Below, piece after piece: positions 6,634-33,949 of a stretch of DNA of 39,195 bases; within the stretch, counting starts at the first letter, position 1; every line of letters starts with the position of its first letter. The translations under genes were made by a program, and so were the position numbers. The notes under the pieces are model-generated. The model made no database searches and was not told the DNA's origin. It saw nothing but the letters and a program-made list of their open reading frames with translations. The DNA lies in assembly GCA_036279215.1 (NCBI GenBank), contig DASUJO010000020.1, positions 1 through 39,195 on the forward strand, in the 5' to 3' direction. The stretch comes from Candidatus Saccharimonadales bacterium. Its GTDB lineage: Bacteria > Patescibacteriota > Saccharimonadia > Saccharimonadales > UBA10212.

Positions 6634-6673
6634 ATAACGCACATAGTAGCATGAATGGCCGGCCGGCCGGCCG

Positions 6674-7537
6674 TTATCTAATTATCCACTGCCCGCCGCC
6701 TGCCGGGCGAATAAGCCCGCGCAGTTCCAAATCGGTCAATGCCGAGCTGACTTCTGCCGCCGGCAGGCTGCTGGCGGCTACCAGTTCTTCCTGCCCTGCG
6801 GTGCCGCCGGCAATCAGCTCGAAGAGTTTCTGCTGGCGGCCGGAACCGGCAATTCTGCTGATGGTTTTTTCTTTGGCCGGCTTGATTCCGAGCGCGAAGA
6901 AAATGTCATCGGCCGCCGTAACCGGCACGGCGCCGCTTTTTATAAGGTTATTACAGCCTTCCGATGCCGGGCTTGTAATATTACCCGGCAGGGCCATAAC
7001 AGTTTTACCCTGCTCAAGCGCGAACCTGGCAGTATGCAGGCTGCCGCTATTGCGGGCGGCTTCGGTTATCACCAGGACATCGGCTAAAGCCGCGACAATC
7101 CGATTGCGGGCGATAAAGTTTACCTTATGGATTTCCGCGCCGGCTGGATATTCGCTAACTAACGCGCCGCCGCCCTTTATAATCCGGCTGGCAAGCCAGA
7201 GGTTGGCTGCCGGCGTAATCTTATCGAGAGGTGTCGGCAGTACGGCGACTGTTAAACCGCCTGCCTCCAAAGCGGCCCTGTGAGAAAAAGAGTCAATGCC
7301 AAAAGCCAGCCCGCTGACTATAACTGCGCCGGCGCTGGCAATTTCGCCAGCTAAACGGTCTGTAATTGTCCTGCCGTAGGCGGTTGCTTTGCGGCTGCCG
7401 ACAAAAGCCACCTTTGGCCGGGCTAATATCATATCCGGTGATGCGCCCCGCCAGAACAAATTTGCTGGGCGTGGCTCCAGAGAACCTAATAACCTTGAAA
7501 CTTCTTGCCGGCTAAGCTTAAGAGTATTGACGTTCAT
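6674..7537 (-). CDS. dprA: DNA-processing protein DprA (transformation/recombination mediator)
   Basis: 287-aa ORF with 'VAFVGSRKATAYG', 'SGLAFGIDSFSHRAALEAGG' and 'ARNRIVAAL' (Rossmann-like DprA core). It has a C-terminal winged-helix-like tail. The dprA-topA synteny is common. Confidence 0.9.
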   Translation of the reverse strand: MNVNTLKLSRQEVSRLLGSLEPRPANLFWRGASPDMILARPKVAFVGSRKATAYGRTITDRLAGEIASAGAVIVSGLAFGIDSFSHRAALEAGGLTVAVLPTPLDKITPAANLWLASRIIKGGGALVSEYPAGAEIHKVNFIARNRIVAALADVLVITEAARNSGSLHTARFALEQGKTVMALPGNITSPASEGCNNLIKSGAVPVTAADDIFFALGIKPAKEKTISRIAGSGRQQKLFELIAGGTAGQEELVAASSLPAAEVSSALTDLELRGLIRPAGGGQWIIR

Positions 7538-7556
7538 AGCATAATATTATTTATTA

Positions 7557-7585
7557 TTGACTCTAAACCATTTTTTTGCTAAAAT
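7557..7585 (+). promoter_or_regulatory. Near-consensus plus-strand promoter TTGACT-17-TAAAAT with TGn extended -10, overlapped by a 6-3-6 palindrome
   Basis: TTGACT at 7557-7562, a 17-nt spacer, TG at 7577-7578 and TAAAAT at 7580-7585. The palindrome TTGCTA-AAA-TAGCAA spans 7576-7590. There is no plus-strand CDS downstream. Confidence 0.55.
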
Positions 7586-7591
7586 AGCAAT

Positions 7592-8017
7592 CCGTAAGCA
7601 TTATTTGATGCTTACCGCACCTTATACCCCCAACTAACATTATGTTAGATTGTCTAAGATAAGGCGTAAGTTGTACCCTCCACTTGCACCCTGCCTGCCC
7701 AATTTTGAGCTTTGGTAAGTAGTATATGCGGGCGATAACCGCCAGACAAATGCTAAAGTTTAAAAAGTTCAGAATTGGGCGGGAATCTTAGACAAACTAA
7801 CCCCTTTAACTCTACGGTCCCATTCAATGTGGGTAGGCTAGCGTGCTCACGCACGCGTCCCCGCTGCTTGCGGCGGGGCGGCGCTTAACCTTCGCATATT
7901 CGCAGGTTCATAGCCAGCTTTGCCGATGGTGGGGTTGAAGGGTGTATTTGAGGGATGAGCAGGTCTCGTCCCCTGAAAGAGTCTCTGGCGGTGCCCACCC
8001 CCTCCAGAGGCTCTTTT
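7592..8017 (+). ncRNA. Candidate ~425-nt structured ncRNA of unknown family
   Basis: The dprA-pth gap has no credible ORF. Hand-traced helices: 7594-7600/7609-7615, 7645-7660/7785-7800, 7694-7713/7764-7783 (20 contiguous pairs, 3 G-U), 7841-7846/7851-7856, 7859-7866/7871-7878 (GCUUGC tetraloop) and 7952-7959/7965-7972. All six wobble pairs are G-U only on the plus strand. The region is bounded by a promoter and a terminator. Confidence 0.5.
7976..8017 (+). terminator. Intrinsic terminator of the candidate ncRNA
   Basis: The stem 7978-7988/8004-8014 has 11 bp including one G-U that is valid only on the plus strand. It is followed by TTTT (8014-8017), and the A-tract at 7976-7977 can extend the pairing. 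Confidence 0.5.
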
Positions 8018-8027
8018 AGTTTGGCGC

Positions 8028-8663
8028 CTATAAAACTGTGCGCGTTTCGTGGTGCAGTTTGTCGCCGAAGATATATTCGGTAATCAGCGCGTTTGCTTCT
8101 CGCAGAACTTTTGGAAGTTCGGCCCTTTCTTCTTTGCTGAATTTCTTAAGCACATACGCGGCAGAATCGCTATTTTTTGACAGTTCCGAATTGATGCCTA
8201 TACGCAGGCGGCCAAAATCCCCGCCTATATGTTCTATCAGCGATTTGACACCGTTGTGTCCGGCATCGCTGCCGCCAATTCGGGTTCTGAGCTGTCCGAA
8301 AGGGATGGCTAATTCGTCGAATACGGCCAGTGTCTGCGGGTTATAAATCCGGTAAAAATGCTGAACGGTTTCAGCCGACTCCCCACTTAGGTTCATTTGT
8401 GTCGCCGGTTTGCAAAGAATAACCCGGCTGCTGCCCATAGCCGATATCGCAATGTCGCACTTAAGGTCTTTCTTTTTAGTCCATGCCGGGAAATCATTCT
8501 GCTGTGCGAAGTAGTCTAAAGCCATAAAGCCAGCATTGTGCCTGGTAGCGCTAAACTTTTTACCGGGATTACCAAGACCGATAATCAGCAAATCCTTAGT
8601 TGCGCCGATAGTATAGGCGGGCGCGCTGCTTGTGACGTACGGCTTTTTTTGTATCAGCCCCAT
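8028..8663 (-). CDS. pth: Peptidyl-tRNA hydrolase
   Basis: 'LIIGLGNPGKKFSATRHNAGFMALD' and 'GSDAGHNGVKS' are canonical Pth motifs. The start lies 9 nt after the der stop. Confidence 0.93.
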   Translation of the reverse strand: MGLIQKKPYVTSSAPAYTIGATKDLLIIGLGNPGKKFSATRHNAGFMALDYFAQQNDFPAWTKKKDLKCDIAISAMGSSRVILCKPATQMNLSGESAETVQHFYRIYNPQTLAVFDELAIPFGQLRTRIGGSDAGHNGVKSLIEHIGGDFGRLRIGINSELSKNSDSAAYVLKKFSKEERAELPKVLREANALITEYIFGDKLHHETRTVL

Positions 8664-9989: not shown

Positions 9990-10017
9990 TAAGGGGTATT
10001 ATAGCTTAATTCAAACT

Positions 10018-15335: not shown

Positions 15336-15410
15336 GGTCCCATCGTCTAGTGGTTAGGACACTGGGTTCTCATCCCAGCAACAGGGGTTCGACTCCCCTT
15401 GGGATCACCA
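15336..15410 (+). tRNA. tRNA-Glu (anticodon CTC), CCA encoded
   Basis: Hand-folded cloverleaf: acceptor GGTCCCA/TGGGATC (one G-U), D arm GTCT..GGAC, anticodon stem CTGGG/CCCAG with loop TTCTCAT, T arm AGGGG-TTCGACT-CCCCT, then A-CCA. It closely parallels E. coli tRNA-Glu. Confidence 0.9.
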
Positions 15411-21916: not shown

Positions 21917-22003
21917 GGCGCCCTGGTGGAATTGGTAGACACGCTGGACTCAAAATCCTGTGAGCGCAAGCTCGTGACGGTTCAAGTCCGTCGGGCGCCA
22001 CCA
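21917..22003 (+). tRNA. tRNA-Leu (anticodon CAA), class II long variable arm, CCA encoded
   Basis: Acceptor GGCGCCC/GGGCGCC, anticodon loop CTCAAAA, variable arm GAGC-GCAA-GCTC, T arm GACGG-TTCAAGT-CCGTC, then A-CCA. There is one U-U mismatch in the anticodon stem. Confidence 0.85.
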
Positions 22004-24355: not shown

Positions 24356-24371
24356 GAGTATATTTTAACAG

Positions 24372-24830
24372 TTAAGAGCGGGCTTTACGCGCGATATCGC
24401 GTTCTTCTTGGCGGCGCTTTATAGTCTCGCGCTTATCATATTCCTTTTTGCCTCTGCCGGCGGCTATACGCAGTTTTATGTAGCGGCCTTGCGTTAGAAG
24501 CTCCAGCGGCACAATAGTATTCCCCAGGTTTTTTGCTTGGATCAAGCGGTCGATTTCCTGGCGCTTGGCCAGCAGTTTGCGAGTGCGTGTCTGTGAATCG
24601 TCTGGTATGTGTATTCCCCTGGCGCCGGTTATCTGGGCGTTTATCAGCCATAGCTCGTTATCTTTAACCGTTACGTAGGAACCTCTAAGAATCCCATGGC
24701 CCAAGCGCAAGGCCTTGGTCTCCGCCCCGGTGAGCTGCAATCCCACGACTAAACTGTCGCCTAGGTCGTAATCGTACCGGGCGCGGCGGTTGGTGATGCG
24801 CTTTTCCTGCTTGGGCCGCTGTTTTGCCAT
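24372..24830 (-). CDS. smpB: SsrA-binding protein SmpB
   Basis: 'NRRARYDY', 'GAETKALR', 'RTRKLLAKRQEI' and a basic C-terminal tail. Confidence 0.93.
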   Translation of the reverse strand: MAKQRPKQEKRITNRRARYDYDLGDSLVVGLQLTGAETKALRLGHGILRGSYVTVKDNELWLINAQITGARGIHIPDDSQTRTRKLLAKRQEIDRLIQAKNLGNTIVPLELLTQGRYIKLRIAAGRGKKEYDKRETIKRRQEERDIARKARS

Positions 24831-33910: not shown

Positions 33911-33949
33911 GACCTTATTATCGCACGTGAGCGCCGGTGATGTTAGGAA

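Follow-up and report, generated by a model that had tools for sequence, protein, structure and literature searches.

Large structured RNAs such as OLE, ROOL, GOLLD and the raiA motif (ModT) are several hundred nucleotides long, are built of several domains supported by covariation, are restricted to particular clades and were found comparatively before a function was; GOLLD and ROOL also have links to phages. Here we describe an RNA with the same traits, encoded between dprA and pth in a stretch of 39,195 nucleotides of Candidatus Saccharimonadales DNA (contig DASUJO010000020.1 of assembly GCA_036279215.1), hereafter called the window. It differs from OLE, ROOL, GOLLD and raiA in host phylum and architecture, has no sequence or structure match to them (their covariance models found nothing), and its gene has a consensus promoter of its own and a terminator whose loop looks functional. 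We regard it as nearly certain that the locus is a single-copy gene for a structured non-coding RNA (ncRNA), with a near-consensus sigma-70 extended -10 promoter and an intrinsic terminator of its own, conserved throughout the Saccharibacteria sampled and adjoining dprA. Such a gene together with a trans-acting role is our best overall explanation, held with about even confidence; slightly less assured is the proposal that the product is a housekeeping RNA whose 3' hairpin loop would be a recognition handle for a factor also exploited by phages.

Other described systems resemble parts of this picture. The actinobacterial 6C RNA and the RNAs RNAIII (Staphylococcus aureus) and RsaE share with it conserved C-rich apical loops, including one on the terminator hairpin, and a stand-alone gene with a strong promoter, but the present RNA is much larger, with a long-range helix, a multi-branch junction and loops that are invariant over 7-15 nt, while its host genes mostly lack G-rich ribosome-binding sites and it matches no Rfam family. 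RNase P RNA is of similar size, with a long-range helix, a possible pseudoknot, a T-loop-like hairpin and a probably high abundance, and the loop that our RNA shares with phages adjoins tRNA-like elements; yet the conserved regions CR-I to CR-V and the RNase P helices P1 and P4 are missing here, and Rfam is negative. Phages, for their part, use hairpins with constant loops as handles for proteins or RNases, as in lambda boxB/N and the RNase III sites of T7. The viral hairpins reported below are similar in carrying a constant loop on variable (here covarying) stems, between genes or at transcript ends, but their loop is 15 nt long, dissimilar in sequence and common to a host ncRNA, and their partner is putative.

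Conservation, strand and fold of the RNA

Homologous loci were gathered through relatives of Pth, almost all from metagenome-assembled genomes of Candidatus Saccharibacteria/Saccharimonadales with 43-73% Pth identity; the listing of DprA homologues covered close relatives only, and cultivated oral Saccharibacteria lie outside the sample. A blastn comparison of the gap with these loci found it at the same position and on the strand opposite pth in about 40 of them, and anchored motif searches combined with an nhmmer profile yielded 57 full-length copies (E = 1e-42 to 1e-98). There is one copy per Saccharibacteria pth/dprA locus, in every locus that extends far enough, with partial copies at contig ends. 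Unbinned metagenome contigs supplied 13 of the copies; a scan of metagenomes for a 14-mer of the terminator loop gave mostly chance matches in GC-rich contigs, and the full RNA on 13 contigs only. The length of the RNA varies from 340 to 590 nt across species. The same motif and nhmmer searches found no comparable RNA at the pth loci of other Patescibacteria (L051, L053, L054, L057, L058, L072 and L080). Two contigs labelled Babeliales (L012) and Binatia (L027) carry a pth-RNA-dprA locus of the Saccharibacteria type and are probably mis-binned in their source genomes.

Covariation was evaluated on a structure of 69 pairs that we specified ourselves, in an alignment of 52 sequences and against 500 partner shuffles. 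Paired cells amounted to 88.3%, against 78.3% after shuffling; 351 cells were changed on both sides (117 in the shuffles), and both-sided changes affected 43 pairs (31 in the shuffles). None of the 500 shuffles matched the observed pairing values, and shifting the 3' partners by 1-3 columns brought pairing down to 35-60%. Compensatory base changes occur in five helices. MAFFT scrambled P1 and aligned GUGGG with GCGAG, and single-sequence folds were used there instead.

The plus-strand RNA (7590-8020) folds to -190.8 kcal/mol, compared with -133 +/- 5.5 for dinucleotide shuffles (z = -10.6; 0 of 100 shuffles as good), while the minus strand reaches -154 kcal/mol with z = -3.7. In the covariation-supported helices of the whole family, G-U or U-G cells outnumber A-C or C-A cells by 160 to 36, and the functional strand is therefore the plus strand. 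An earlier note on this DNA, made from its letters alone, had proposed an independently transcribed and highly structured orphan ncRNA in a gap without a credible open reading frame (ORF), and had oriented it by its G-U pairs. All of this has held: the 490-nt gap contains only ORFs of at most 42 amino acids, promoter and terminator are conserved, homologous intergenic regions show conservation and covariation, the G-U asymmetry is family-wide, and neither Rfam nor ARAGORN recognises the RNA. The helices that the note had traced by hand all return in the minimum-free-energy (MFE) fold, the first one with 9 bp instead of 7.

The locus and eight homologous loci had no RNA match in Rfam 15 at the gathering score and nothing meaningful at E<=10, the RNase P models RF00010 and RF00011 included; ARAGORN found no transfer-messenger RNA (tmRNA) in the window or in 80 loci. 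Some RNase P RNAs of the Candidate Phyla Radiation (CPR) fall below the Rfam thresholds (PMC8172020), and for this reason the defining features of the known RNAs were checked directly. CR-I (GGAAAGUCC) and CR-V (ACAGAAnnCGGCUUA), which form helix P4 of RNase P, have no exact match in any of 56 copies, and CR-V was not found in them even with 2 mismatches; the domain IV motif of the signal recognition particle (SRP) RNA, the tmRNA T-arm and a CCA end are likewise missing from all 56. RNase P RNA, tmRNA, SRP RNA and 6S RNA share a terminal helix between their 5' and 3' ends, which is absent from the present fold: its ends are local hairpins, P1 and the terminator, both of which covary, and end-to-end pairing appears in 8 of 56 MFE folds. 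In place of the rod-like hairpin with a large central bubble and paired ends that typifies 6S RNA, the fold supported by covariation is branched and multi-domain, and the Rfam 6S model is silent. The failure of the earlier note to fit the RNA to RNase P, tmRNA, 6S or SRP is thus upheld by Rfam, ARAGORN and the motif and end-helix tests. No homologue of the RNA was found in GenBank phages, and no description of it or of its loop sequence in the literature. We conclude that it represents a new family of large structured ncRNA.

The elements of the RNA are listed from 5' to 3' in Table 1. Within the linker that follows P1, GYACCUU is invariant and CUAACA usual, as is a C-run that is nonetheless dispensable (absent from L033, L047 and L048). 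In P3, 96% of cells are paired and 10 of the 16 pairs have both-sided changes. The stem of the hairpin that it encloses exchanges AU, UA, GC, CG and GU, with both-sided changes in 4 of 6 pairs, around a loop whose ACCCTCC columns are invariant in the 52-sequence alignment; UACCCUCC is present in 55 of 55 sequences. The distal arm of P3 is variable in length and missing in some lineages. P4 is a long-range helix of CCCUUUAAC with GUUGAAGGG (7934-7942), paired in 99.8% of cells; its closing pair is C-G in most copies, G-C in L008, L031, L044, L047 and L048 and A-U in L033, and further double changes occur in L150 and L186. RNAalifold had proposed the 5' linker ACCUUAUACCCCC as the partner of the G-rich segment, a solution that we rejected, the C-run being dispensable and the variants of these eight loci (L008, L031, L033, L044, L047, L048, L150 and L186) compensating for CCCUUUAAC/GUUGAAGGG.

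The junction closed by P4 contains a hairpin that we tentatively label T-loop-like: the T-loop core UUCRA, with its U1-A5 pair, is UUCAA in the window (7823-7827), while the first U is variable and many homologues have AUCAA or CUCAA. Three more junction hairpins are found in most homologues, with differing sequences and CUUG or UUCG caps. In the G-rich segment, GGUGGG is invariant, and there is a UGUAAU tail. P5, where present, is paired in 91% of cells, with both-sided changes in 6 of 8 pairs. The gene ends in a covarying, G+C-rich stem of 11 bp (both-sided changes in 10 of 11 pairs) that is followed by 3-7 U in all copies, an intrinsic terminator that a simple scan missed because its 15-nt loop is atypically large. 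The core of this loop, GGUGCCCACCCCC, is identical in every copy of the RNA despite the 43-73% identity of Pth. Insertions occur at two loci. At L150 (1761-2349) the copy is divergent: its P4 junction is remodelled, and about 250 nt are inserted downstream of the G-rich segment, ahead of the terminator. In L028 (3698-3855, minus strand) an insert of about 150 nt directly after the terminator precedes a second loop copy with the 3' half of the stem (GGTGCCCACCCCCTCTGGAGGTCTTT); this looks like the target duplication of an element that may have integrated into the RNA gene at its 3' end, in the way known from tRNA and tmRNA genes.

Table 1. Features of the window; positions are counted from its first nucleotide, and MFE marks helices of the minimum-free-energy fold
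Feature	Position	Strand	Remarks
Predicted transcript, ~425 nt	7592-8018	+	Ends inferred: 5' from the -10 box, 3' from the U-tract
-35 box TTGACT	7557-7562	+	Promoter scan; TTGAC invariant in 52 homologues
Extended -10 TGcTAAAAT	7577-7585	+	G22, T24, A25 and T29 invariant in 52 homologues
P1, 5' hairpin, 9 bp, loop AUUU	7594-7615	+	MFE, 7594-7602/7607-7615; hairpin in every homologue, stem sequences very different (single-sequence folds)
Single-stranded linker, GCACCUUAUACCCCC (7617-7631) and CUAACA (7634-7639)	7617-7639	+	Conserved
P3, 5' strand	7644-7660	+	MFE; pairs with 7785-7801, 16 bp around an A-A mismatch
Hairpin with invariant ACCCUCC, loop UGUACCCUCC (7672-7681)	7666-7687	+	Stem covaries
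Distal P3 arm	7694-7783	+	MFE, 20-bp helix 7694-7713/7764-7783; apical AGUAUA 7721-7726
P3, 3' strand	7785-7801	+	MFE; pairs with 7644-7660
P4, 5' strand CCCUUUAAC	7802-7810	+	Pairs with 7934-7942; directly abuts P3
Hairpin CCCA[UUCAAUG]UGGG, T-loop-like (tentative)	7819-7833	+	Loop conserved as (U/A)UCAANG
Three P4-junction hairpins	7841-7912	+	7841-7846/7851-7856 (MFE); 7859-7866/7871-7878 (MFE, CUUG cap); 7887-7894/7901-7908
G-rich segment GGUGGGGUUGAAGGGUGU	7928-7945	+	7928-7933 candidate pseudoknot strand; 7934-7942 P4 3' strand; conserved tail
P5, optional hairpin	7952-7972	+	MFE, 7952-7959/7965-7972; in about half of homologues
Terminator, 11-bp stem, 15-nt loop CGGUGCCCACCCCCU (7989-8003)	7978-8018	+	MFE, 7978-7988/8004-8014, then UUUU (8015-8018)
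dprA	6674-7537	-	
pth	8028-8663	-	
tRNA-Glu(CUC)	15336-15410		With tRNA-Leu(CAA), the sole Rfam/ARAGORN matches in the window
tRNA-Leu(CAA)	21917-22003		With tRNA-Glu(CUC), the sole Rfam/ARAGORN matches in the window

Two tertiary pairings would bring the terminator loop back onto the body of the RNA. GGUGGG (7928-7933) is complementary to CCCACC (7994-7999) of the loop, both being invariant in all copies, and a pseudoknot between them is compatible with the data, although covariation has no purchase on it because neither strand varies. The earlier note had offered GGUGGG two alternative partners; the terminator loop can serve in every copy, but pairing with the 5' C-run is not conserved, the run having been lost in L033, L047 and L048. 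GCACC (7617-7621) is in turn complementary to GGUGC (7990-7994) of the loop, a match of 5 nt that could be due to chance and that we put forward as conjecture only.

The terminator loop in viral contigs

A scan of IMG/VR for the loop 14-mer matched at least 120 contigs, and the figures given here refer to the 120 matches listed. A stem of at least 6 bp flanks the 14-mer in 50 of these, compared with only 5 of 107 metagenome matches outside the full RNA; of the latter five, L179 is the 3' end of a partial RNA copy, L155 has the loop hairpin but lacks the RNA, and the hairpins of L129, L193 and L194 look like chance formations in G+C-rich contigs. In a stricter set of 42 hairpins among the 120 listed, a C precedes the core in 42 of 42, and so the viral loop is the same 15 nt, CGGUGCCCACCCCCU, as in the host RNA. 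The stems of this set average 11 bp, are all different in sequence and contain 45 G-U as against 19 A-C cells. Altogether 41-42 of the 120 listed matches have the loop on stems that are unrelated in sequence, mostly between genes.

The median GC content is 0.46 for viral contigs with loop hairpins, 0.49 for the Saccharibacteria loci and 0.60 for matches without a hairpin, the last value being as expected for chance hits to a GC-rich word. That all the viral 14-mer matches are due to chance, no other part of the RNA being present, was considered and rejected, since nhmmer and the stem test indicate that about 40% are true loop hairpins; the nhmmer alignment extends beyond the 14-mer in several contigs. 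Judged from their sequences, the viral loop hairpins are real and not chance formations. The loop occurs once per RNA and once per viral contig stretch. An origin as phage attachment (attP) sites was also rejected: the stems differ from the host stems and covary, and the contexts are intergenic positions in structural modules or terminators of small RNAs (sRNAs). Phage-like contigs that have both the loop and a matching G+C content are probably phages of Saccharibacteria.

A crude ORF call placed 27 of 41 viral hairpins between genes and seven more only inside an ORF of the opposite strand; these ORFs look spurious in at least three cases (L211, L273 and L303). In seven related phages (L211, L254, L258, L273, L300, L303 and L308) a small ORF and a scaffold-like gene flank the hairpin, adjacent to terminase and portal genes; its stems covary and a second hairpin follows. 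Elsewhere it occupies a 5' leader just after the -10 box (L208, L212, L245 and L252), or ends, together with a U-tract, tiny promoter-proximal units of about 45-80 nt (L213, L259, L268, L295, L316 and L319), which are candidate phage sRNAs. CCUCCC forms the loop of the first, upstream hairpin in L259 and is found in the corresponding stretch of L319, there as sequence only; both recall the ACCCUCC loop of the host RNA. On the minus strand of L264 and L269, in an element of about 120 nt, the loop caps an acceptor-like stem of 7 bp between a T-arm and a D-arm. With its parts in this order (T-arm and 3' acceptor strand, loop hairpin, 5' acceptor strand, D-arm), it is a circularly permuted tRNA-like element, which ARAGORN did not call. 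Rfam found no family in 19 loop-bearing viral contigs, and nhmmer found neither GYACC nor GGUGGG, the segments of the host RNA complementary to the loop, in the phage contigs.

Possible function and rival explanations

We propose that the RNA acts in trans and has an abundant housekeeping role, the abundance being suggested because its promoter is a consensus one. Its folded body would be a scaffold displaying invariant C-rich single-stranded elements, and its 3' hairpin loop a handle for a conserved partner acting in trans, for which a host RNase or RNA-binding protein is the likeliest candidate. By carrying the loop on hairpins of their own, phages would use, or compete for, the same partner. 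A protein or an RNase fits this part because the phage contexts are intergenic positions, transcript ends and the spacer of a tRNA-like element, and it agrees with the use that phages make of constant-loop hairpins in boxB/N and in the T7 RNase III sites; within the RNA itself, the loop may dock on GGUGGG (7928-7933) as a pseudoknot. Several points weigh against this proposal. The mechanism is read from anatomy alone, and the pseudoknot pairing has no covariation signal, both strands being invariant. The single loop copy per RNA or contig stretch argues against a CsrB-like protein sponge with multiple sites, ORFs contain a few of the viral hairpins, and a search of the viral contigs by terminase returned no names of host organisms.

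The C-rich loops could alternatively make the RNA a base-pairing riboregulator of the RNAIII, RsaE or 6C kind, with ACCCUCC, CCCACCCCCU and UACCCCC as seeds that would pair with G-rich mRNA segments, ribosome-binding sites for example. The strong promoter would be in keeping with such a function, and so would the several single-stranded C-rich elements that never vary, of which the terminator loop contains one, as it does in RNAIII; but Shine-Dalgarno sites are few in the window, most of whose genes look leaderless, and a target search with the conserved loops across its 39 kb found only the locus itself; these facts weaken the proposal, and we consider it unlikely, if worth keeping in mind. 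Invariance over 13-15 nt across the class would moreover suit one fixed partner better than many evolving mRNAs, and the same loop on phage hairpins would be left unexplained. Still more doubtful is that the RNA itself reads the loop, GYACC (7617-7621) and GGUGG(G) (7928-7933) each complementing one half of it (GGUGC and CCCACC), so that its own 3' end, another molecule or a phage transcript would dock there for processing, protection or multimer formation. Both complementarities are present with both sides invariant, and the loop is found on unrelated phage RNAs, including between permuted tRNA-like halves, where processing is expected; on the other hand, chance alone not infrequently makes conserved segments complementary over 5-6 nt, no covariation is seen, and the phage contigs are devoid of the receptor segments. 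The bolder version of this idea, to which we give an equally low probability, is that CGGUGCCCACCCCCU might be a portable RNA tag and that the host RNA carries both the tag and its reader segments, GYACC and GGUGGG. If that were true, phages would tag their transcripts, tiny sRNAs and the permuted tRNA-like RNA so as to plug into or jam the activity of the host RNA, be it processing, protection or assembly, which would amount to a new RNA-based interface between a CPR host and its viruses.

The remaining explanations are less probable again. A cis-acting leader or riboswitch-like element, whose terminator would control read-through antisense to pth or, elsewhere, into co-directional small genes, recalls an expression platform in that the G-rich segment could pair with the terminator loop, and small same-strand ORFs do lie downstream in some loci. 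It is very unlikely because the downstream context differs between genomes, with a convergent pth as the usual case; the terminator stem and U-tract are also intact in all copies, and a multi-domain RNA of 340-590 nt greatly exceeds known leaders in size. A highly diverged RNase P RNA, tmRNA, SRP RNA or 6S RNA missed by Rfam would fit the size of about 400 nt and the strong promoter, and RNase P RNAs of CPR bacteria can fall below Rfam thresholds (PMC8172020), but the silence of Rfam even at E<=10 for the locus and eight homologues, the negative ARAGORN result, the missing CR-I, CR-V, SRP domain IV, tmRNA T-arm and CCA in 56 copies and the local hairpins at the ends in place of a shared terminal helix make it highly improbable. 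Least credible of all, and given almost no weight, is a minus-strand reading, as a structured spacer or 5' untranslated region of a pth-dprA transcript, or as the remnant of an inverted repeat at the DNA level. The minus strand has a fold with z = -3.7 and carries pth, dprA and topA, but the G-U to A-C ratio of 160 to 36 and the conserved plus-strand promoter and terminator contradict it, as does a gene that is single-copy, syntenic and without repeat copies and that is separated from pth by other genes in several genomes.

Whichever partner a trans-acting housekeeping RNA may have, its retention suggests an important function that current annotation does not capture. The Saccharibacteria, which are epibionts, have lost much ordinary metabolism and have genomes of about 1 Mb; despite this reduction every sampled genome keeps an RNA gene of 340-590 nt with a consensus promoter. 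Parts of the RNA vary as little as ribosomal RNA does, whereas the proteins encoded next to it have diverged to 43-73% identity. The shared loop provides two experimental entry points, namely the binder of the hairpin and the reason why phages copy the loop, and it may also serve as a marker linking uncultured phages to their Saccharibacteria hosts.

Promoter, neighbours and minor features of the locus

The promoter of the RNA gene consists of TTGACT, a spacer of 17 nt and TAAAAT (7580-7585) with a TG upstream, and has 10 of 12 matches to the sigma-70 consensus (TTGACA, 17 nt, TGnTATAAT). TTGAC of the -35 box, the TG and the T, A and T of the -10 box are invariant in the 52-sequence alignment, and the position is conserved among these homologues; this is the near-consensus plus-strand promoter with a TGn extended -10 that the earlier note had described. 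The note had also seen a perfect 6-bp palindrome, TTGCTA-AAA-TAGCAA (7576-7590), as a possible operator. It exists in the window but is specific to it: most homologues have a T where the window has an A, so that only TTGC-N7-GCAA is kept, and an operator is unnecessary to explain this remainder because it shares positions with the discriminator and the extended -10. The likely -35 box of the divergent dprA promoter, TTAGCA (7582-7577) on the other strand, would be overlapped by the extended -10 of the RNA.

In the window, topA shares the minus strand with pth and dprA. The start of dprA lies 10-20 nt ahead of the -35 box of the RNA gene in nearly all genomes, and in several genomes unrelated small genes separate the RNA from pth, which is why we regard dprA, with its back-to-back overlapping promoter, as the stable neighbour. 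Convergence on pth, as described in the earlier note, is the usual downstream arrangement, but one that intervening genes break in several genomes, synteny being tighter with dprA. One of the inserts is an ORF of about 95 amino acids (MSKRK..PSPAIDG.LEVTIGAM.SGM), co-directional with the RNA, between its 3' end and pth in L002 (3631-3915), L025 (3645-3938) and L004 (3633-3914), all on the minus strand of these loci; other genomes have different inserts at the same spot.

Most genes of the window have no Shine-Dalgarno sequence in their start regions (about 34 ORFs), and a -10 box resembling TAnAAT lies 5-12 nt upstream of many starts, for example at 2923-2950, 9990-10015, 24356-24380 and 33911-33935, a pattern that suggests widespread leaderless or very short-leader mRNAs in the window. 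Finally, the 31-nt spacer between the stop codon of dprA and the GTG start of topA contains a tetranucleotide repeat, (GGCC)4, at 6657-6672.

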